35,024 nt of DNA from an uncultured Flavobacteriales bacterium (GTDB lineage Bacteria; Bacteroidota; Bacteroidia; Flavobacteriales; UBA7430). The stretch lies in NCBI GenBank assembly GCA_963933205.1, contig CAWVTK010000003.1:1-35024 (forward strand), in the 5' to 3' direction. A model generated the notes under the pieces. The model had not been told where the DNA came from. It did not search any database and saw only the letters and a list, made by a program, of their open reading frames with translations. The first letter of the stretch is position 1. The number at the start of each line of letters is the position of its first letter. The position numbers were made by a program, and so were the translations under genes. Of the stretch, positions 3,069-13,566 are shown one piece after another.

Positions 3069-3365
3069 ATGACTACTACAGAACTCAACCTAAATTCTGA
3101 AGAGTTGCAAACTGCAGCTTCAAAACTTAAAGTTTTGGGACACCCAATAAGAATATCTATTATTCAGTTATTGGCGAAGACTCCTAAACTTTGCGTAACT
3201 CAAATCTTTACAGCTTTAAATATTGAGCAAGCAATTGCTTCTCATCATTTAAACACGCTAAAAAACAAAAGCATTCTCAACTCCGAAAGAGTTGGTAAAA
3301 ACTCTTTTTACTCAGTTACTAATAAGAGTTTAATCGATGTGGTTAATAACATACAAATCTGTTAG
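3069..3365 (+). CDS. ArsR/SmtB family transcriptional regulator
   Basis: 98 aa; LKVLGHPIRISII, QAIASHHLNTLK and RVGKNSFYS winged-helix pattern. Confidence 0.85.
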   Translation: MTTTELNLNSEELQTAASKLKVLGHPIRISIIQLLAKTPKLCVTQIFTALNIEQAIASHHLNTLKNKSILNSERVGKNSFYSVTNKSLIDVVNNIQIC

Positions 3366-3406
3366 TAAACTGCAGTTATTTTTTTAATTCTTAACATAGG
3401 TTTGTT

Positions 3407-3423
3407 TTGGCATATTTTTAGCT
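3407..3423 (+). promoter_or_regulatory. Putative sigma54 -24/-12 promoter TTGGCATATTTTTAGCT
   Basis: GG 3409-3410 and GC 3421-3422 are separated by exactly 10 nt, with a TGGCA core; 33 nt before the peptidase ATG. Confidence 0.6.
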
Positions 3424-3431
3424 AACTAAGC

Positions 3432-3451
3432 AATAAATAAATAAATAAATA
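3432..3451 (+). repeat. (AATA)5 tetranucleotide tandem repeat just upstream of the C25 peptidase start
   Basis: caataaataaataaataaataaacctATG. Confidence 0.8.
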
Positions 3452-3456
3452 AACCT

Positions 3457-6400
3457 ATGTTAAGAATTCTACAAATTACAATTTGTTTTTTTGCCCTTAA
3501 TCTGTCAGCACAAAGCTCCCACATTAAGACTATTTCTAGTAATGTAAATAGTCTTCATTTAAAGTTTATTACGGGGAAACTTCAATTTGACCAGATTAGC
3601 GCAGACACAAAAGACTTTACGCACATTTCTGCTGCTGGATTAACCAAATCATACGATATTGGGAATCCAGATTTACCTGTTTACAGTAAACTAATAGAAG
3701 TTCCAACAAATGGAGCTATCTCTGTTGAGATACTAAACTCTTCAGAAAAGCGCACCGACTTAGCAGCTCTTGGATTTCATCAAGAGGTTTTACCTTCTCA
3801 ACATTCTGTATTTAAAAATCAGGACCCTACAAAAGTCCCTTTTCAGTACAATGAAAGTACATATTTAAGCAATAATTTTTATTCTCAAAACTTAGTTACA
3901 ATTGAGCGAGTTGGAGTTATGCGTGGTAAATCTATTGCAAGAATTCAAATTGCACCACTCTCCTACAATCCACTAACCAACGAGTTACTAGCTAAAAAAG
4001 AGGTAGAGTTAAAAGTGAATTTTGAAAACTCAATTACAATTACCCCACAGGCATTACGAACACAAGATTTTGACGTAAATTTTTCAAAACTATTGAATAA
4101 AGATTTAGGTCAGAAGCAAGCTTTTTCTTCAAACACCACTCGTATGATAATTTTATCAGACCCAGAATTTGAAGAAGATTTACAACCTTTTATCCAGTGG
4201 AAAATTAGAAAAGGATTTGATGTAATTGAAGCTTACAAAGGACAAGCAGAAGTAGGAGAAACCAAAGAGAGCATGAAATCTTATGTGCAATCTTTTTACG
4301 ACAATGCAACAGAAGAAAACCCGGCCCCTACTTACTTGCTTATTGTAGGCGACCATGAACAAATACCAAGTTTTGATGCAGGTAACCATGTCTCAGATAT
4401 GTTTTATTGCGAATTTGATGGGAATGGAGATTACCTACCAGAAATGATCTTTGGTCGATTCTCAGCTTCTACCAGAAGCGAACTAGAAATTCAAATTAAT
4501 AAAACCTTACAATACGAACAGTTTACAATGACCGACCCAAGTTATCTTGAAGAAGTTCTTCTTGTAGCCGGTGTTGACGGTAACTTTGCACCCACCCATG
4601 GAAATGGACAAATTAATTATGGAACAGATTACTATTTCAATGCGGCTCATAATCTAACATCCTATGTGTATTTATATCCCGAAACAGAATCTAATGCAGT
4701 AGAAAATGCAATTATAGAGCATGTAAGTGATGGAGTTGGTTTTGCAAATTACACAGCGCACTGTGGCCCCGGTGGTTGGTCAGATCCAAGTTTTGAAGTT
4801 TCTGATGTTGCTGGATTAACAAACGAAGATCAATATGGTTTAATGGTAGGGAACTGCTGTCAATCCAATACATTTAACGGAGTTACCTGCTTCGGCGAAG
4901 CTCTGTTGAGAAAGTCTAAAGGAGGCGCTGTTGGTTACATCGGTGGCTCGGACAATACACTGTGGGATGAAGATTATTATTGGAGTGTTGGAGCAGGTCC
5001 AATTTCTGCAAACCCGAATTACCAGGAAACAGGCTTAGCTATTTACGATTGTAGTTTTCACGAAAACAACGAACAATCAGACGACTGGTCTATAACACAA
5101 GGTCAATTGTTCCAGTCAGGAAACTGGGCTGTCTCAGAATCGGCTAGTAGTCAAGCCGAATATTACTGGGAAATTTACCATTTAATGGGAGATCCTTCTG
5201 TACTCACTTATTACGGAATGCCATCTGATCTTATGGTGTCTCATCCTTCAGCTTTATCCGTTGGAATGTCTTCCATATCTGTATCTACTGAACAATACAC
5301 TTACGTAGCCATAAGTCAGAATGGAGTTCTTTTGGACGCATCTTACACCGACGAAACTGGAAACATCGTTTTGTCTTTTGAGCCTATTAGTACCATGAGC
5401 CCATTAGAGATTGTGGCTACCAAACACAACAAAAAAGTATACATTGGAATCGTAAACACGATGAGTTCCGATGCACCCTATGTGACTTGCTCTTCTATAT
5501 CTTTAAATGAAGGTGAACTTGGAGACATTGAGGCAGCGATAAACCAAACATTCGTTTTAGATATGAGCCTCCAAAATTACGGTTCTGTTGATGCTACTGG
5601 ATTGACTATTGATGTTACTACATCAAATCCAAATGTAACTATTAGTTACAGCGAGCTTCTACTAGCATCCATATCTGCTCAATCTGTTATAAATATGAAT
5701 GGTTTAGTTACCGTTGAATTAAATAATAATTTTGCCGATCAAGAACTTGTGAATTTAATATTTACGATAACAGACGCAGAAGGTTCACAATGGTTTACAA
5801 ACAATAGTTTTCTGGTAAATGCACCCGAATTAGAATTTAGTTCTCATTCACTTTCAAATTCTAACTCCACAATAGCGCTTGGCGAAACCGTTGAGATTAC
5901 ATTTATTTTAAATAACATAGGGCACGCTACATCCACAAACGGTAGTGTAGTTGTTTCTTCTGATTTACCTGAATTGAGTATTAATCAAAACAATCTCTTG
6001 TTCAGTTCAATAGGAGCTAGTTTGCAGGCTTTAGTAACTGTGCCGGTAACCCTAAATCCTGATGCTCCTTTGGGAGAAACATATTCGATATCTTTGACGG
6101 CTCTTTCTGATGCCGGGTTATCAACTAATTATACAGCAACTTTTACCACACCTAATTGCCCGACTGAAAGCTCAGAAGTTCAAATAAATTTAGTTACCGA
6201 TTATTACCCAAACGAAACTTCTTGGGTTCTATTAAACTCAGATGGTGAAACAATTGGCCAGGTCGGTTCAGACGAGTTAGAATCAGGTCAATCCTACACA
6301 GATATATTTTGTGTAAATATGAATACGTACTACACGTTTGAAATCCAAGATGATTTTGGCGATGGATTATTATCCGGGGGTTACAGTATAGTAATATGTG

Positions 6401-6870: not shown

Positions 6871-6937
6871 TTAACCATAACTTAACACTCTTTTAAGAAA
6901 CGATTAACCTTACATATACTTTGCATACATATATTTG
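6871..6937 (+). promoter_or_regulatory. Pho-box-like array (4 half-sites, 11-bp period) plus -7 element
   Basis: TTAACC 6871, TTAACA 6882, TTAAGA 6893, TTAACC 6904; TATATTTG 6930-6937. Confidence 0.75.
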
Positions 6938-6957: not shown

Positions 6958-8178
6958 ATGAAAAAGTGGAATTTAGTATTTATACTGTTTAGCATTGCGG
7001 TAAATATCTTTGCACAAGAAGTTGTAAATAATAGTTTTGGAAACGGCTTTTACAATGTTATTGCTGCCGATAGTTCCTATAGCATGAAACTAGCTGCAAG
7101 AATGCAATCCCTATACATAGCAGATTGGGATGTTGACGAATCCGATGGTTTACACAACGGAAATTCACAATTTTTGATTAGAAGAGCACGATTGAAGTTT
7201 GGAGGTTTTGTTTTAAACCCTAAAGTAAAATACAAGATCGAACTAGGATTGTCTAACAAAGATTTAGGAAAAGTAGACGGCAGAAATAATGAAGCCCCAA
7301 AAATGATTTTGGATGCAGTTGTAAAATGGAATTTTTATAAAAACTTCACCTTGTGGGCAGGACAAACTAAGCTCCCAGGAAATAGAGAACGTGTAATCTC
7401 TTCTGCAAATTTACAATTGGTAGATCGATCTCTGGTTAATAAAAGATTTAATATTGACCGTGACATGGGTATTCAACTTCGCCATCACTTTAAATTAGGA
7501 AAGAACTTTATTGTACAAGAATCTATTGCTATATCTCAAGGAGAAGGCCGAAACGTTGTACAAGACAACTTAGGTGGATATCAATGGACGGGTAGAATAG
7601 AGGTTTTGCCATTTGGTGCGTTTTTAGGAAAAGGCGATTATACAGGTGGAGCTTTAAAAAGAGAACAAAAGCCTAAACTAGCTATCGGTATTACTTACGA
7701 TCTTAATAATGCTGTAAAAGACCGTTCTAACTTAGGGAATTATATGCTCATTGACCTTGATGCTGGCTTTGAAGAAACCTACCACCAAACAAATGTAAAC
7801 ACAGTTTTTGTTGATGCAATGTATAAGTATCAAGGATTTTCTCTTATGGCAGAATATGCCTCTAGAGAAGCAGATAACCCAATCGCAAGAAACTCAGACG
7901 GTACTCCAACCGAAAATGTTGTTCAGGTTGGAAATGGATTGAATGTTATGTCTGGCTATTTATTAAAGAATAATTTTGAGGTAACAGGACGGTATACCTC
8001 CATTAAATTGAATAAGAATATAACCGGAAAAGACTTAGAAAGACAATACACATTAGGGCTTTCTAAATATTTTAAAGGACATAAATTGAAAATCCAATCT
8101 GACATCAGTTACTTAACTATTGAAAACAATCCTACTGGTAAATTGATGTACAGACTTCAATTTGATGTACACTTTTAA
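6958..8178 (+). CDS. Outer-membrane porin, phosphate-selective porin O/P-like
   Basis: Signal peptide; basic ladder FLIRRARLKF; ILDA and GQTKLP..RE segments; DRDMG; amphipathic strands ending RLQFDVHF (terminal Phe). Confidence 0.75.
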   Translation: MKKWNLVFILFSIAVNIFAQEVVNNSFGNGFYNVIAADSSYSMKLAARMQSLYIADWDVDESDGLHNGNSQFLIRRARLKFGGFVLNPKVKYKIELGLSNKDLGKVDGRNNEAPKMILDAVVKWNFYKNFTLWAGQTKLPGNRERVISSANLQLVDRSLVNKRFNIDRDMGIQLRHHFKLGKNFIVQESIAISQGEGRNVVQDNLGGYQWTGRIEVLPFGAFLGKGDYTGGALKREQKPKLAIGITYDLNNAVKDRSNLGNYMLIDLDAGFEETYHQTNVNTVFVDAMYKYQGFSLMAEYASREADNPIARNSDGTPTENVVQVGNGLNVMSGYLLKNNFEVTGRYTSIKLNKNITGKDLERQYTLGLSKYFKGHKLKIQSDISYLTIENNPTGKLMYRLQFDVHF

Positions 8179-8203: not shown

Positions 8204-8238
8204 AAAACGGAAATTCTAATTTAGAATTTCCGTTTTTG
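8204..8238 (+). terminator. Intrinsic terminator after the porin gene
   Basis: Perfect 16-bp inverted repeat AAAACGGAAATTCTAA-T-TTAGAATTTCCGTTTT with U-rich tail. Confidence 0.85.
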
Positions 8239-8305: not shown

Positions 8306-8313
8306 TATATTTG
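8306..8313 (+). promoter_or_regulatory. -7 element (TATATTTG) for SulP
   Basis: Matches TAnnTTTG; overlaps the ORF-track TTG start at 8311, which argues for ATG 8410 as the real start. Confidence 0.45.
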
Positions 8314-8409
8314 GTTAAATTATTAGTATTGATAAATATACGATTTATTAAATATCTACTTTTATGTAGACTCTTAGTATTAAATGAATTTAACATAAAA
8401 AGAATAAAA

Positions 8410-10245
8410 ATGAAGAAAGTATTTAATTTTAAACACTTAAAAGGAGATTTATACGGAGGAATAACGGCGGGTATTGTAGCTCTTCCCTTAGCACTTGCAT
8501 TTGGGGTTAGCTCCGGACTCGGACCAAGTGCCGGTTTGTATGGTGCAATTTTTGTAAGTTTTTTTGCGGCACTTTTTGGAGGCACCAATACTCAAATATC
8601 TGGGCCAACCGCACCAATGACGGCCGTAAGTATGGTTGTAGTTGCCGGAATAGTTGCCACATTTAATGGAGACATCGCTAATGCATTACCTGTAATACTA
8701 GGTGTTTTCTTATTGGCCGGAATAATGCAAATCGGACTGGGTTTACTTGGTTTAGGTAAATACATCAAATACATACCGTATCCTGTAGTGTCTGGATTCA
8801 TGACAGCCATAGGTGTCATCATTTTAGTTACTCAAATACTCCCCTCATTAGGTTATTACCCAAAAGAAGATGTCGTATTTGTAGATCAGTTTAAACCATA
8901 TGCAGAAGAAATAATATTAGACAATATATTAAAGGATGAAGCCGGTGAAGGTTTTTTGGTGCTCGAAAATTTTGAAGAAACCATTACACGTGCAAATTAC
9001 ATTACTCAGGAACAAATATTGAAAGAATCTCAAGTACTAGCTGGCAAAGAAGCTTCTGGTGTATTCGGTGCGCTAAAAGTTTTACCTCGAGCTCTTCAAA
9101 AAATTAACTGGATGGAATTTATTTTAGCACTCGCAACCATCATAATTATCTACGGGTTTAAGCGAATTACAACAAAAGTGCCAAGCACTTTGGTCGCTTT
9201 AGTTGTTATGACTGTTGTTGCTATTGTTTTTGGATTAGATTATCGATCAATTGAAGAAATACCCAGTGGCTTACCTGTTCCTAATTTTAGGATTTTTACT
9301 GATTTTAGTTTGAGTGGCATATCCCCGTATATTTTTAGTGCGCTTACCTTAGCTCTTTTAGGAGCTATAGATACCCTGCTTACCTCTGTTGTTGCTGATA
9401 ACATGACTAAAACCAAACATGCACCTAATAAGGAACTAATTGGTCAAGGAATTGGAAACAGTATTGCATCACTTTTTGGTGGGATTCCAGGAGCTGGAGC
9501 AACCATACGTACCGTTGTGAATATTAAAGCTGGAGGAAAAACGAGGTTGTCTGGAATGATGGCTGGTTTAATGCTCCTAATCGTACTTCTTGCACTAGGA
9601 CCTATTGCTTCTCAAATTCCAGCTGCTGTTTTAGCTGGTATACTAATTACTGTAGGTATTGGTGTGATGGATTACAAAGGCCTCAAGGCAATTCCTTTTA
9701 TGCCTAAGCCTGAAGTTATCATAATGCTAGTTGTTTTAGTACTAGCCTCTGTTTGGAATTTAGTTTACGCTGTAGGCATTGGATTAATTCTAGCCTCCTT
9801 AATGTTTATGAAAATAATTGGAGATATGACCTCAGAAAGATCCAAAGTAAGCGCCCTAAATCAAGACAAAGAACTGCCTGATAATCTTACATTATCCGAA
9901 ACGATCACGGAGCGTATTGCCCTTAAAGAAATTAAAGGACCCTTATTCTTTGGTTCTACGAGCGAATTTCAGCAATTGGCACAACAAATCCCAGATGCCT
10001 CATCCATAATTATCTTTAAAATGGGCTTAATGCCTTACATGGATCAGTCTGGTTTGTACGCTATGGAAGACCTATTAATAGACTTAGTAAAACAAGGCAA
10101 AAAGGTGATGCTTGTTCAGCTGCTCAAACAACCAAAACATATGCTAGAGTGCATTGATATTATTCCAGCATTAATTCCAACTGATCAATTATTTGAATCG
10201 ATAGAAGAATGTCTGTCATGTTTAAAAGAAACAGATCAACAATGA
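8410..10245 (+). CDS. SulP/SLC26 family anion transporter (BicA-like) with STAS domain
   Basis: GDLYGGITAGIVALPLALAFG, ISGPTAPM, NKELIGQGIGN, GATIRT; C-terminal STAS GPLFFG...MDQSG; start taken at MKKVFNF. Confidence 0.92.
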   Translation: MKKVFNFKHLKGDLYGGITAGIVALPLALAFGVSSGLGPSAGLYGAIFVSFFAALFGGTNTQISGPTAPMTAVSMVVVAGIVATFNGDIANALPVILGVFLLAGIMQIGLGLLGLGKYIKYIPYPVVSGFMTAIGVIILVTQILPSLGYYPKEDVVFVDQFKPYAEEIILDNILKDEAGEGFLVLENFEETITRANYITQEQILKESQVLAGKEASGVFGALKVLPRALQKINWMEFILALATIIIIYGFKRITTKVPSTLVALVVMTVVAIVFGLDYRSIEEIPSGLPVPNFRIFTDFSLSGISPYIFSALTLALLGAIDTLLTSVVADNMTKTKHAPNKELIGQGIGNSIASLFGGIPGAGATIRTVVNIKAGGKTRLSGMMAGLMLLIVLLALGPIASQIPAAVLAGILITVGIGVMDYKGLKAIPFMPKPEVIIMLVVLVLASVWNLVYAVGIGLILASLMFMKIIGDMTSERSKVSALNQDKELPDNLTLSETITERIALKEIKGPLFFGSTSEFQQLAQQIPDASSIIIFKMGLMPYMDQSGLYAMEDLLIDLVKQGKKVMLVQLLKQPKHMLECIDIIPALIPTDQLFESIEECLSCLKETDQQ

Positions 10246-10369
10246 TCTTCAGATTGAATTTTAGATGCTAATTGTTAAAATGCGTGAGCAGTATGTAACT
10301 GGCTTATTTTAATATCTTAAATTAGCTAAATTATACTACCTAGGTGTTGCTTACTAAATAGAGGTAGGG

Positions 10370-10436
10370 TTAACCTAAACTTAACATTAGGTTTATTTTA
10401 GTTTAACTGCAATGATCGGTTTTAGTCCTTTATTTG
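10370..10436 (+). promoter_or_regulatory. Second Pho-box-like array (11-bp period) plus degenerate -7 element
   Basis: TTAACC 10370, TTAACA 10381, TTTATT 10392, TTAACT 10403; TTTATTTG 10429-10436; same geometry as 6871-6937. Confidence 0.75.
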
Positions 10437-10463
10437 CAGAGTAAAATTTAAAAAACCCACATT

Positions 10464-10556
10464 ATGAACACCTCTACAATTACAAGAATTGAAATCAGTA
10501 AGTTTTTATACGCAACTATTTTAGTAGTCGTTTATGCAATTGCAGTATTTGCCTAA
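10464..10556 (+). CDS. Unannotated 30-aa single-pass membrane micropeptide MNTSTITRIEISKFLYATILVVVYAIAVFA
   Basis: ATG after an A-rich leader, 27 nt past the -7 element; 17 consecutive uncharged, mostly hydrophobic residues at the C-terminus; stop 34 nt before the transporter ATG. Confidence 0.6.
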   Translation: MNTSTITRIEISKFLYATILVVVYAIAVFA

Positions 10557-10590
10557 TCCTAGTTTATAGTAAATTACTACTAGTTGTTTT

Positions 10591-11733
10591 ATGAAAAAGC
10601 TCATTAGAAGATTTAGCTTTCCTGTTTCTCTATGGATTCAGAAAGATGAGAAATCATTTTTAACCTTCGTTATCGCTGCTTTTATGCTTGCGATGTTTGC
10701 AACACCTTACCCCCAAATTGCAATGTGGGTAGGCTTTTTATTTGCAGCTTATGCCGCAGTTGCAAACGACTCTATACAAACACTCGGTACATTTATTGCC
10801 TCCAATCAAGATAAGAAGTGGTGGGTACTTTGGTTGTTTATCGGAGGTATTTTTCTTTTTACAGTTGGCTACAGCTGGTTTAATTACGGAGGAGATGTTT
10901 CTCACGGTCGGTTAATGGCAAAAGGCTTTGAAATAGCTCCAACCGAATTTCACTTCTTACAAATTGCGGCACCTATTTTCCTTTTGATACTAACGCGTTT
11001 AAGAATGCCAGTATCAACTACATTTATTTTACTTACCTCTTTTGCCACTGCTCCTGCTGCAATTGGTAAAGTATTAGCCAAAAGTATGAGTGGCTACATA
11101 CTCGCGTTTTTCTTAGGTGTTGTTGTTTTCTTATTAATATCTAAACTCGCAAAAAAATACTTTGTAGGCGAAGCCAAATTTGGCTGGTCTATCGCACAGT
11201 GGATTACCTCGGGTACTCTCTGGTCTGTTTGGCTAATGCAAGATGCAGCCAATATTGCAGTATACCTTCCAAGAGACATGTCGTTTAGTGTATTCATGGG
11301 TTTTGCAATGGTTGTTTTTATAGGTTTAGGCTTGCTCTTTTATTATAAAGGAGGTAGAATACAAAAAATTGTAACAGAAAAATCAGTCATAACAGACGTT
11401 CGTTTTGCAACAATTGTCGATTTTATTTACTGTATTATCTTATTTTATTTCAAACTATACAGCTCTGTTCCTATGAGTACAACATGGGTTTTTATTGGTT
11501 TGTTAGGAGGTAGAGAAGTTGCTATGGCAATTAGAAAAACGGGAGAGCATAGCTTACTTCATTCCATAAAACTATTACTTAAAGATTTCTCATTCGCCAT
11601 GATTGGCTTATTTATATCCATTGCCATAGCAATTGGTGTAAACGATCAACTCTCACTTGCTTCTATGATGGAAACCATACCGGCAGAGTTTGCCTCCGGA
11701 ATAACAAAATTCTTTAGCAAACTAGGACTTTAA
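10591..11733 (+). CDS. Divergent PiT/PHO4-like inorganic phosphate transporter (putative)
   Basis: Polytopic membrane protein with repeated motifs VANDSIQTLGT / MPVSTT and QDAANIA / VPMSTT, resembling the PiT GANDxAN and PVSTTH signatures. Confidence 0.6.
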   Translation: MKKLIRRFSFPVSLWIQKDEKSFLTFVIAAFMLAMFATPYPQIAMWVGFLFAAYAAVANDSIQTLGTFIASNQDKKWWVLWLFIGGIFLFTVGYSWFNYGGDVSHGRLMAKGFEIAPTEFHFLQIAAPIFLLILTRLRMPVSTTFILLTSFATAPAAIGKVLAKSMSGYILAFFLGVVVFLLISKLAKKYFVGEAKFGWSIAQWITSGTLWSVWLMQDAANIAVYLPRDMSFSVFMGFAMVVFIGLGLLFYYKGGRIQKIVTEKSVITDVRFATIVDFIYCIILFYFKLYSSVPMSTTWVFIGLLGGREVAMAIRKTGEHSLLHSIKLLLKDFSFAMIGLFISIAIAIGVNDQLSLASMMETIPAEFASGITKFFSKLGL

Positions 11734-11738
11734 TACTT

Positions 11739-11771
11739 AAAACTCCCTCGAGAAATCGAGGGAGTTTTTTT
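11739..11771 (+). terminator. Intrinsic terminator
   Basis: AAAACTCCCTCGA-GAAA-TCGAGGGAGTTTT followed by Ts. Confidence 0.9.
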
Positions 11772-11822
11772 GGCTCTTAAACTCTGATATTTGTACTATA
11801 TTTACAGAAACTCATTTCAATC

Positions 11823-12518
11823 ATGCAAACGAACAATCGTATTTTACTTGTCGATGATGAGAAAGATATCCTAGAGTTCTTAAGTTACAATCTTAAGAAA
11901 GAAGGCTTTGAAGTAGCTACCTGTTCCGACGGCCAAGCTGCTTTAGATATGATCCTAGAGTTTAAGCCCAATCTTATTGTGTTAGATGTAATGATGCCCG
12001 GAATGGACGGAATAGAGACCTGTGAAAACATAAGAGCAAATCCTGAAAACGATTCCATAATCATTACTTTTTTAACTGCCAGAGCAGAAGACTATTCTCA
12101 AGTAGCAGGTTTAAATGCAGGAGCAGACGACTATATTTACAAGCCAATTAAACCCAAAGTTTTAGTGAGTAGAGTTAAAGCACTTTTAAGAAGAAAAGTA
12201 GCTATAACAACTTCTGATGAGCCATCCCAAACAATTCAAATTGCAAACCTGAATATTAACAGAGAACGTTATTTAGTAACGCTTGATGAGCTCCCCTTAA
12301 CCTTACCTCGTAAAGAATTTGAAATTTTATATTTACTGGCATCTAAACCAGGTAAAGTGTTCAAGAGAGATGAGATCTTTGAAAAAATATGGGGAAACGA
12401 CGTAGTGGTTGGTGGACGTACCATTGATGTTCATGTAAGGAAACTCAGAGAAAAGCTTGGAAGAAATTACATAGAAACTGTAAAAGGGGTTGGCTATAAA
12501 TTTAAATTAGATGAATAG
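11823..12518 (+). CDS. OmpR/PhoB family response regulator (PhoP-like)
   Basis: Receiver LVDDE, LDVMMP, FLTA, KP; wHTH RTIDVHVRKLREKL...TVKGVGYKF. Confidence 0.93.
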   Translation: MQTNNRILLVDDEKDILEFLSYNLKKEGFEVATCSDGQAALDMILEFKPNLIVLDVMMPGMDGIETCENIRANPENDSIIITFLTARAEDYSQVAGLNAGADDYIYKPIKPKVLVSRVKALLRRKVAITTSDEPSQTIQIANLNINRERYLVTLDELPLTLPRKEFEILYLLASKPGKVFKRDEIFEKIWGNDVVVGGRTIDVHVRKLREKLGRNYIETVKGVGYKFKLDE

Positions 12519-13566
12519 GCTTCCAAAGCTATATTTCAAGCTGAAAAAAAAAATAGATCAATCATGGTTGGTCTCTTTAGTTTCTTCAATTGTTTTAATC
12601 ATCGTAATGTGTGCGCACATTTTTATTTTTGATTTCGACTTAAGTTTCTCTAATGCGGTAATTCTCGTAAGCTCTGTTGGTCTTTCAAGCTTTATTTTGG
12701 TGAGGTGGTTGATTGATCAGTTTATATACAATAAAATTAAACTGATTTATAAAAACATTCAAGATTTCAAATCTAGACCAGGAGATTTAAAAGACGTTGA
12801 TTTACAACAAGCATCAAAAGATGTAGCAAGTTGGAACATAAAACGCGAAAAAGAAATTCAAAAATTGATGATACGTGAAAGCTACAGAAGACAATTTGTT
12901 GGAAATGTAGCACACGAACTAAAAACACCTATTTTTAATATTCAAGGTTATATCGACACACTGCTCGATGGTGCTATAGATGACGAAGAAATAAACCGAA
13001 AATTTTTAGAGCGCGCTAACAAGAGTGTAGCTCGAATGATCTATATTATTGAAGACTTAGACCAAATCACCAAACTAGAGGCCGGAACACTTGAAATAGA
13101 AGAGTCGCCCGTAGATATTATCGAGGTGATTACCGATGTAGTTGACCAATTGGATATGAAAGCTAAAAAAAGAAATGTTAATGTTATTGTAAAACAGCAG
13201 CAGCAAAAAGGCCGTTTTTTAGTTCGCGTAGATGTAGAAAAAATAAAACAAGTATTAATCAATCTTATCGTAAATGCAATTAAGTACGGTAAAGAAGGTG
13301 GCGAAGTACTTGTAAGAACCTACGAAATGGGTGAACAAGTATTAGTAGAAGTTGCAGATGATGGAAATGGAATTGCCTCCGACCACCTAACCAAAGTTTT
13401 TGAGCGGTTTTATCGTGTAGATAAATCTCGCGACCGAGGACAAGGCGGCTCTGGTTTGGGTTTATCAATAGTAAAACACATTATAGAAGCACACGGTCAA
13501 ACCATAAACATTAGAAGTACAGAAGGTGAGGGTTGCACACTTTCCTTTACCTTGAAAAAAGCGTAA
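12511..13566 (+). CDS. Membrane sensor histidine kinase (PhoR-like)
   Basis: Two TM helices; H box NVAHELKTP; NAIKY; DDGNG; FERFYRVD; GGSGLGL; 8-nt overlap with the regulator. Confidence 0.93.
   Translation: MNRLPKLYFKLKKKIDQSWLVSLVSSIVLIIVMCAHIFIFDFDLSFSNAVILVSSVGLSSFILVRWLIDQFIYNKIKLIYKNIQDFKSRPGDLKDVDLQQASKDVASWNIKREKEIQKLMIRESYRRQFVGNVAHELKTPIFNIQGYIDTLLDGAIDDEEINRKFLERANKSVARMIYIIEDLDQITKLEAGTLEIEESPVDIIEVITDVVDQLDMKAKKRNVNVIVKQQQQKGRFLVRVDVEKIKQVLINLIVNAIKYGKEGGEVLVRTYEMGEQVLVEVADDGNGIASDHLTKVFERFYRVDKSRDRGQGGSGLGLSIVKHIIEAHGQTINIRSTEGEGCTLSFTLKKA

Follow-up and report, generated by a model that had tools for sequence, protein, structure and literature searches.

A conserved 30-residue membrane peptide encoded ahead of a PiT-fold carrier gene in marine Flavobacteriales, a candidate subunit or modulator of the carrier

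In a 35,024-nt stretch of DNA from an uncultured Flavobacteriales bacterium (GenBank assembly GCA_963933205.1, contig CAWVTK010000003.1; the whole stretch is called the window here), an open reading frame (ORF) of only 30 codons lies at 10464-10556 on the + strand, shortly ahead of the gene for a 380-aa membrane carrier. Is so small a frame a gene, and if it is, with which protein does its product work? An earlier note on this DNA, made from the letters alone, had read the ORF (hereafter the micro ORF) as a hidden transmembrane micropeptide heading a transporter operon, and had suggested an accessory subunit or regulator of the carrier or of the kinase encoded farther downstream, or else a leader peptide that couples translation. 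From the comparisons described below, we consider it probable (roughly 0.6) that the peptide is a small subunit or modulator of the carrier, which appears to be a divergent protein of the PiT fold under phosphate-starvation (Pho) control.

Coding status of the micro ORF and its linkage to the carrier gene

The micro ORF lies where the earlier note had placed it, with exactly the translation given there. Its product has a hydrophilic N-terminal head with the motif [KR]-[IVF]-[DE]-[ILV]-S, followed at residues 14-30 (FLYATILVVVYAIAVFA) by an unbroken hydrophobic run of 17 residues that reaches the C-terminus. This is the one segment of transmembrane length in a protein under 50 aa (30 aa in the window), and it bears out the single transmembrane helix that the note had seen. 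The family shares this layout, with Met, a few polar residues, the sequence [KR]-[IVF]-[DE]-[ILV]-S-x-x-[LIV]-Y and a hydrophobic helix to the C-terminus, and 44 of the 46 members found next to the carrier gene (see below) are 25-33 aa long; at locus L094, a 25-aa form with its own ATG lies within a 42-aa frame started by TTG.

A lone small ORF in one AT-rich genome is within chance, and the 9 kb of the window between 7000 and 16000 hold 105 ORFs of 20 aa or longer; it is conservation across genomes that gives the micro ORF its significance. Among 10 orthologues, the ratio of nonsynonymous to synonymous substitution (dN/dS, Nei-Gojobori) was 0.02-0.26 in the 40 of 45 pairs with a defined dS, synonymous sites being saturated in the remaining 5, and the proportions of synonymous (pS) and nonsynonymous (pN) differences were 0.30-0.81 and 0.01-0.18. 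Variable columns at codon positions 1, 2 and 3 numbered 12, 8 and 26 of 31. When the 11 closest loci were aligned upstream of the carrier gene, they showed a near-invariant array of TTAAC boxes and an element TTATTTG, then a micro ORF that varies at third positions, and then an unconserved spacer. Because dN/dS is low and third-position variation is dominant, the pattern is that of a protein under strong purifying selection. That it is a chance frame within conserved non-coding DNA, as the many small ORFs around it might suggest, is contradicted by dN/dS values far under 1, by the variation of third positions relative to second positions, and by start and stop codons kept in 46 loci next to a spacer that is not conserved; we regard this explanation as extremely improbable. 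The earlier note had named synteny and dN/dS as the check on its proposal, and relatives do carry a conserved ORF upstream of the carrier gene. By its pattern of substitution, then, the micro ORF is a conserved protein-coding gene, and it is presumably translated.

The carrier was present in 22 of 41 related genomes and, in an order-wide search, in 77 of 401, where its homologues fell into two identity classes, a close one (at least 63%) and a distant one (at most 58%). We counted a locus as positive where the 400 nt upstream of the carrier gene contained a same-strand profile match to the peptide at an expect value (E) below 1e-3. The close class includes 34 loci fetched later from the order-wide search, and 13 of its 46 positive loci had supplied rows to the profile. 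Peptide homologues, in the form of ORFs of 24-33 aa, were found in 46 of the 54 close-class loci, whose carriers share at least 64% identity with that of the window, and 32 of the 34 newly fetched loci were positive. The positive loci come from families f1, f3, f9 and f10, and f2 contributes weaker transmembrane ORFs at the same position (L012 and L017); these two and L097 have weak profile scores (E 0.15-1.6). Of the eight loci without a match, a further one, L019, has no upstream DNA. A search that started from the peptide found the carrier immediately downstream at 11 of 11 genome loci, largely in the same genomes and so not independently of the first count. In the two genomes where the profile matched, that of the window's host (G000) and G007, the peptide gene is single-copy.

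What surrounds the pair changes from genome to genome. The regulator and kinase genes stand directly downstream of the carrier gene in the window and its 10 closest relatives. At 19 of 34 further loci a regulator match lies upstream of the carrier gene, outside the micro ORF-carrier pair and mostly on the opposite strand, and at L012, L013, L017 and L018 the micro ORF and carrier gene are both present while no match to a regulator or kinase lies within 1.5 kb. Genome G512 has the order phoR-phoB (minus strand), an unknown gene, pstS-pstC-pstA-pstB-phoU, a TTAAC array, the micro ORF and the carrier gene. Because the pair persists while its neighbours change, the constant partner is the carrier and not the kinase. 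The spacer between micro ORF and carrier gene has a median length of 32.5 nt (range 11-197 nt over 46 loci), with no overlap of stop and start codons. The micro ORF thus shows the conserved adjacency to a transporter gene, and the promoter shared with it, that are expected of an operon-encoded accessory subunit.

Conservation within the peptide also points to a protein partner. Across 68 unique family members, the conserved alignment columns are S11, L14/Y15, I18/M19, V22/[FY]23 and A26, which form one helix face that extends from the edge of the membrane across the bilayer; the helical moment of conservation at 100 degrees was 7.7, a value reached by 33 of 10,000 column shuffles. Such one-face conservation is what a helix packed on a conserved protein partner would be expected to show, without naming that partner. 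A co-fold of the peptide with the 380-aa carrier, which the earlier note had proposed as a further check, was run with both alignments and scored 0.49, against 0.00 for the best control; the runs shared at least 78% of contacts, with a predicted local distance difference test score (pLDDT) of at least 69 for the partner. In calibration, 116 of 157 solved complexes and 2 of 215 mismatched pairs attained the co-fold mark, and our pair passed in the weak range, with the verdict 'weak support'. Of the two partners that the earlier note had offered for an accessory subunit or regulator, linkage at 46 of 54 loci, the conserved helix face and the weak co-fold favour the carrier, and the kinase is disfavoured.

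The peptide is a family that lacks a name more than it lacks earlier sightings. When a profile built from 14 orthologues was run against 1.84 billion representative proteins, 28 representatives matched at E <= 0.001. Of these, 26 are peptides that share the layout described above and are 24-61 aa long; in the longer ones, the ORF seems to have been called from a start codon farther upstream. The exact peptide of the window and 4 of the 6 orthologues that were looked up are already in public gene-call collections, where two cluster mates are named 'hypothetical protein'. The ORF is thus hidden in the sense that it falls below the long-ORF track given to the earlier note, and not in the sense of being absent from public gene calls. 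When 35 aligned family members were compared with Pfam (E <= 10), there were only unrelated single matches (DUF5488, DUF6480 and ExbD); the window peptide matched 0 Pfam families, and none of the 35 matched an NCBIfam model. An assignment to DUF3948 was considered and dropped, as its best Protein Atlas score was 0.83, below a meaningful level, and Pfam gave it no support. In the literature, supplements aside, we found no description of the peptide family or of its link to the carrier. As judged from these searches, the peptide is a sequence family without a curated model, and its gene is unnamed rather than unseen.

Promoter, translation start and transcripts

The features of the locus are as follows, with the strand where it was recorded.

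From 6871: first TTAAC array, ahead of the porin gene
6958-8178: phosphate-selective porin, downstream of the first TTAAC array
8204-8236: strong terminator-like hairpin, upstream of the SulP/STAS permease gene
8311-10245: SulP/STAS permease
10370-10407, + strand: TTAAC array of four boxes phased by 11 bp (TTAAC, TTAAC, degenerate TTTAT, TTAAC), read from the sequence
10430-10436, + strand: TTATTTG element, invariant in 11 aligned loci
10450-10463, + strand: A-rich region for initiating translation of the micro ORF; adenines at -3, -12 and -13, and unbroken A between -14 and -9
10464-10556, + strand: micro ORF, 30 aa, ATG start, 30 codons plus TAA
10557-10590, + strand: spacer between micro ORF and carrier gene, 34 nt, with a dyad whose function is unsupported
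10591-11733, + strand: 380-aa PiT-fold membrane carrier, fold match 6L85
11823-12518, + strand: PhoB-like response regulator with Response_reg and Trans_reg_C; its best NCBIfam matches are PhoB models, below their cut-offs
12511-13566, + strand: short PhoR-like histidine kinase with HisKA (126-192) and HATPase_c (241-350) only

The motif TTAACN6TTAAC occurs twice in the window, at 6871 and 10370, against a chance expectation of 0.27, and 3 of 100 shuffles reached 2 matches. The second array, near-invariant in the 11 orthologous loci, is a candidate PhoB site (Pho box) of the promoter that would drive the micro ORF, which is the first conserved ORF downstream of it. Over the family, 42 of 46 loci have a TTAA[AC]N6TTAAC match within the 200 nt that precede the micro ORF, usually between -87 and -99, and such a match falls inside the spacer between micro ORF and carrier gene at 2 of the 46 loci only. 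Since 42 of the 46 loci have the array 5' of it, the micro ORF would be the first cistron, and its place behind the second TTAAC-array promoter, at the head of the carrier operon, agrees with what the earlier note had proposed. TTATTTG at 10430-10436 is probably a promoter element; we take it to be of the Bacteroidota type, with a partial match only (the TTTG core) to the consensus. If TTATTTG is taken as the promoter element, the transcript would start near 10443 and the leader would be about 20 nt long.

The 20-nt leader of the micro ORF has a mean A fraction of 0.55 over the 46 loci, compared with 38% A in the carrier leader and 34% A in the whole loci, so the A-rich leader seen in the window holds for the family. 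ATG is the start codon in 45 of 46 loci, and L013 uses TTG. In Flavobacterium johnsoniae, adenines at -3, -6, -12 and -13 favour translation initiation (PMC6847099).

Parts of the stretch occur in ten marine metatranscriptome runs (four studies), and four of these runs (three studies), all in the form of assembled contigs, were compared with it. The contigs cover the following positions.

X1: 10469-10970, 0 letters differing from the window
X2: 10487-11442, 19 letters differing
X3: 10476-12478, 70 letters differing
X6: 10378-10629, 0 letters differing

All four bridge the micro ORF and the carrier gene; uncovered parts and differences in depth between contigs carry no evidential weight. Three contigs, one from each of three studies, start at 10469-10487, which is 5-23 nt past the first base of the ATG, and this clustering hints weakly that transcription starts a short way upstream, in keeping with a start near 10443.

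A few neighbouring features were recorded beside these. The first TTAAC array drives the porin gene, and it is unusual to find a SulP permease gene inside a Pho cluster. The window also encodes a C25 peptidase with a type IX secretion system (T9SS) sorting domain.

The carrier and its phosphate gene neighbourhood

The carrier matched no model in Pfam (E <= 10) or NCBIfam; it did not reach the cut-off of PF01384 (PHO4), with no match to that model even at E <= 10, and sequence and profile searches of the PDB gave nothing useful. Only a fold search led to PiT. The AlphaFold2 model, built from 32 sequences, had a pLDDT of 80 and a predicted template-modelling score (pTM) of 0.79, and its top Foldseek match was 6L85 (E 8.6e-4, template-modelling score 0.49, probability 1.00), the sodium-phosphate transporter of Thermotoga maritima, a PiT protein and the only clear structural match. 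VIA-align placed 287 residues on 6L85 with Z 20.9, a root-mean-square deviation of 3.8 A and 17% identity, the next entry having Z 6.4. Compared with the PiT family as represented by PF01384 and 6L85, the carrier shares the fold but lies below detection by PF01384, NCBIfam and PDB profiles, and additional helices flank its aligned core (residues 39-352) at both termini. On the evidence of this model, the carrier is a divergent PiT-fold protein; the earlier note's assignment to PiT therefore stands by fold and finds no counterpart among Pfam models.

Homologues of the carrier are numerous and largely unnamed. Among 8000 candidates scored, 7251 were homologous clusters; the nearest Atlas clusters carry the automatic name 'Phosphate/sulfate permease', and in the best 120 of the 7251 every named cluster is called 'hypothetical'. 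Homologues 40-58% identical to the carrier are also encoded by 89 viral stretches in IMG/VR, where they are mostly about 300 aa long and span core residues ~40-351, and one Atlas neighbour cluster of the carrier also lists Uroviricota. A viral homologue of this kind may be a phage auxiliary gene for phosphate uptake. In four further genomes (G576, G489, G600 and G665; loci L098-L101) the match to the carrier is split between residues 1-98 and 100-380, with a gap of 60 nt in G576 and of ~366-490 nt in G600, G665 and G489; open frames of ~500-550 aa run across the three larger gaps, and one of 398 aa in G576. From their length, the larger gaps seem to encode an additional domain of roughly 120-165 aa.

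Broken copies of the carrier gene, with several in-frame stops, were seen at L020/L061 (G004), L021 (G015) and L022 (G008). At L061, where the carrier gene has decayed, the micro ORF has lost its stop codon and the frame reads on to 46 residues; as a single case, this is a hint that the two genes decay together.

The host genome (G000) is a 2.03-Mb assembly, 88% complete. A six-frame search of it with PF01384 gave 0 matches, whereas 11 of 14 control genomes had one; no PhoU match was found, and no PstB over the cut-off (best 151 bits vs 343). Because the assembly is 88% complete, PHO4, PhoU and PstB are better described as not found than as absent. By this gene content, the Pho-box-driven PiT-fold carrier, perhaps together with the SulP permease, may be the main phosphate importer of this organism. 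The PhoR-like kinase of the window, at 351 aa, has two N-terminal hydrophobic segments (residues ~19-40 and 48-66, by eye) joined by a loop of a few residues, and the domain scan detected no PAS or other sensor domain in it, so it would have to sense through a partner or within the membrane. The kinase of G512 is similar (341 aa).

We also considered the peptide as a substitute for PhoU in genomes that lack it. This idea is weakened by the finding that 11 of 57 genomes with a close-type carrier have PhoU, and since the micro ORF-carrier pair of G512 directly follows pstSCAB-phoU, the peptide is not a general replacement for PhoU. G004 and G008, both with a broken carrier gene, do have PhoU. 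At the G512 locus (L186), a 320-aa ORF without a Pfam match lies at 3076-4038, between the divergent phoB-phoR genes and pstS, and may be another unannotated member of the Pho regulon.

Proposed role, alternatives and known counterparts

We propose that the micro ORF is translated into a 30-residue single-pass protein of the inner membrane, as the first cistron of a phosphate-starvation (PhoB-box) transcript that would also encode the PiT-fold carrier. Going by the positive-inside rule, the head with its basic residues would face the cytoplasm and the transmembrane helix would end at the outer face. The face formed by Ser12, Leu15/Tyr16, Ile19/Leu20, Val23/Tyr24 and Ala27 would pack against the carrier in the membrane, and the bound peptide, as a small accessory subunit, would either make the carrier more stable or tune its activity, much as KdpF does with KdpABC or MgtS with PitA. 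The comparisons above show that the gene is conserved and protein-coding, that it is tightly linked to the carrier gene and to the promoter, and that the carrier has the PiT fold; translation, topology, binding to the carrier and an effect on transport are what we infer, and we hold the overall proposal at the probability given at the outset.

A number of observations weigh against it. Distant-class loci, sampled class-wide with carriers 50-58% identical, had no peptide homologue (0 of 29), and adjacent small transmembrane ORFs, sought both upstream and downstream of distant carriers, yielded no credible candidate. The viral loci (L106-L185, 80 of the 89 stretches) likewise had none when the whole locus was searched on both strands at E <= 1 (0 of 80). 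Even in related genomes, the carriers at L014, L015, L023 and L088 are without a neighbouring peptide homologue, and in G014, G010 and G735 the profile found no peptide anywhere in the genome (E <= 1). The co-fold score of 0.49 falls in a range, at or below 0.60, that held 18 of the 157 solved complexes together with both of the mismatched pairs that had passed, and the proteins used as controls, unrelated and 30 residues long, are not known to form transmembrane helices, so that generic packing of a helix could account for the difference. Assembled contigs do not reveal where a transcript starts, which strand it comes from or whether one transcript spans both genes, and their libraries may contain DNA; on a strict reading of the contig ends, the transcript could also start inside the micro ORF. 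Finally, the carrier's probable role as a phosphate importer is inferred from three things only: the fold, the Pho setting and a cluster name that was assigned automatically.

The same facts allow other explanations of the pair. If translating the ORF mattered and the peptide did not, the micro ORF could be a leader that couples or attenuates expression, or a first cistron that targets the mRNA to the membrane. Its first place on the transcript, its strong A-rich initiation region and the short spacer at most loci would suit such a role. The earlier note, which had raised the leader peptide, had also seen a dyad in the 34-nt spacer. The dyad is present, but it folds at chance level (minimum free energy -3.8 kcal/mol and z +0.81, with 157 of 200 shuffled sequences folding as well or better) and is not conserved among the 10 orthologous loci closest to the window; 10557-10590 contains no called terminator-like site and no Rfam match was found in 10200-10700, so we rejected the dyad as a terminator or attenuator. 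Because the whole peptide is under purifying selection, with one conserved helix face, and the length of the spacer varies between loci without any stop-start overlap, a leader or coupling role is very unlikely, and this part of the earlier note did not survive the comparison. Alternatively, the peptide could act on signalling, by binding the sensor-less two-segment PhoR-like kinase, alone or as a bridge to the carrier, and reporting the carrier's activity to it. Such a role would resemble that of MgrB on PhoQ or of DUF1127 proteins on PhoR, and small proteins that bind PhoR are known (PMC12648545). It would also suit a kinase with two hydrophobic segments and no detected sensor domain, encoded directly after the carrier gene and its regulator gene in the window and its 10 closest relatives, in a genome (88% complete) where neither PhoU nor PHO4 was found, nor PstB over the cut-off. 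Against it stand the four loci that keep micro ORF and carrier gene with no regulator or kinase nearby, the 19 of 34 further loci where the regulator match lies outside the pair, L014, L015 and L023, which have carrier and regulator without the peptide, and G512, where the peptide occurs alongside a full pstSCAB-phoU set. The kinase as partner, as the earlier note had allowed, is disfavoured by a micro ORF that stays with the carrier gene where regulator and kinase have moved or are not nearby, and we consider a role in signalling doubtful.

A bolder version joins the two proteins. The peptide might be the coupling element of a phosphate 'transceptor', its cytoplasmic [KR]-I-[DE]-I-S head and conserved transmembrane face relaying the transport state of the carrier to the sensor-less PhoR kinase with its two transmembrane segments; we think this improbable. 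Were it true, a 30-residue protein would do the job of PhoU or PitR in streamlined marine Flavobacteriales, in a setting where Pst, PhoU and a canonical PiT were not found in the assembly. It is also conceivable, if unlikely in our view, that the peptide, though Pho-regulated, works independently in the membrane and acts not on the carrier but, for instance, on another envelope protein or the lipid bilayer, or in a toxin-like way, and that a shared promoter is the only link between the two genes. Carriers without the peptide in distant clades, on viral contigs and in a few close genomes would be consistent with this, as would the weak co-fold; it is opposed by an adjacency to the carrier gene that outlasts rearrangement of all other neighbours in five families, and by the single copy of the gene in G000 and G007. 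We therefore return to the peptide as a small subunit or modulator of the carrier, and to what is known of comparable proteins.

The closest layout is that of KdpF (29 aa), which is encoded in the kdpFABC operon of Escherichia coli and stabilises the transporter complex (PMC12648545). Both are single-pass peptides of about 30 residues, and both are encoded at the head of a transporter operon that is switched on when a nutrient runs short. The two differ in that members of our family match no small-protein model of Pfam or NCBIfam (0 of 35), and in that the partner here would be a secondary carrier of the PiT fold, whereas that of KdpF is a P-type ATPase. No Kdp domains were found among the neighbours scanned; what follows the micro ORF is the PiT-fold carrier gene and then the PhoB- and PhoR-like genes. 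MgtS (31 aa), another small protein with a single transmembrane segment, reportedly modulates the PiT-family symporter PitA in E. coli. The gene for MgtS lies away from pitA and responds to magnesium starvation, whereas the peptide described here is co-encoded with its carrier behind a putative Pho box; the curated libraries, in which the presence of an MgtS model is unconfirmed, gave no sequence similarity to it.

A small gene beside a PiT importer gene has been described before: SCO1846, an 'uncharacterized membrane protein', adjoins pitA in 45 genomes and is a possible accessory protein where PitR is lacking, and each PhoU clade is tied to one importer family (PMC12439885). SCO1846, described there as having about one third of the size of PhoU, is larger than our 30-aa peptide. 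PhoU and PitR differ from the peptide in being soluble, where the peptide is a membrane segment. By its sequence and setting, the peptide is thus a new sequence family in a known kind of system.

Small single-pass proteins associated with transporters are known from a handful of cases in model organisms. The peptide described here is tied to an unannotated carrier family that is very common in marine metagenomes, and the pair is wired into the phosphate-starvation response of ocean Flavobacteriales with small genomes, which argues for annotating the micro ORF and for naming the carrier family. If the peptide modulates or stabilises the carrier, it would offer a compact and genetically tractable pair in which to study how micro-proteins tune PiT transporters, and it would bear on phosphate uptake by abundant marine heterotrophs.

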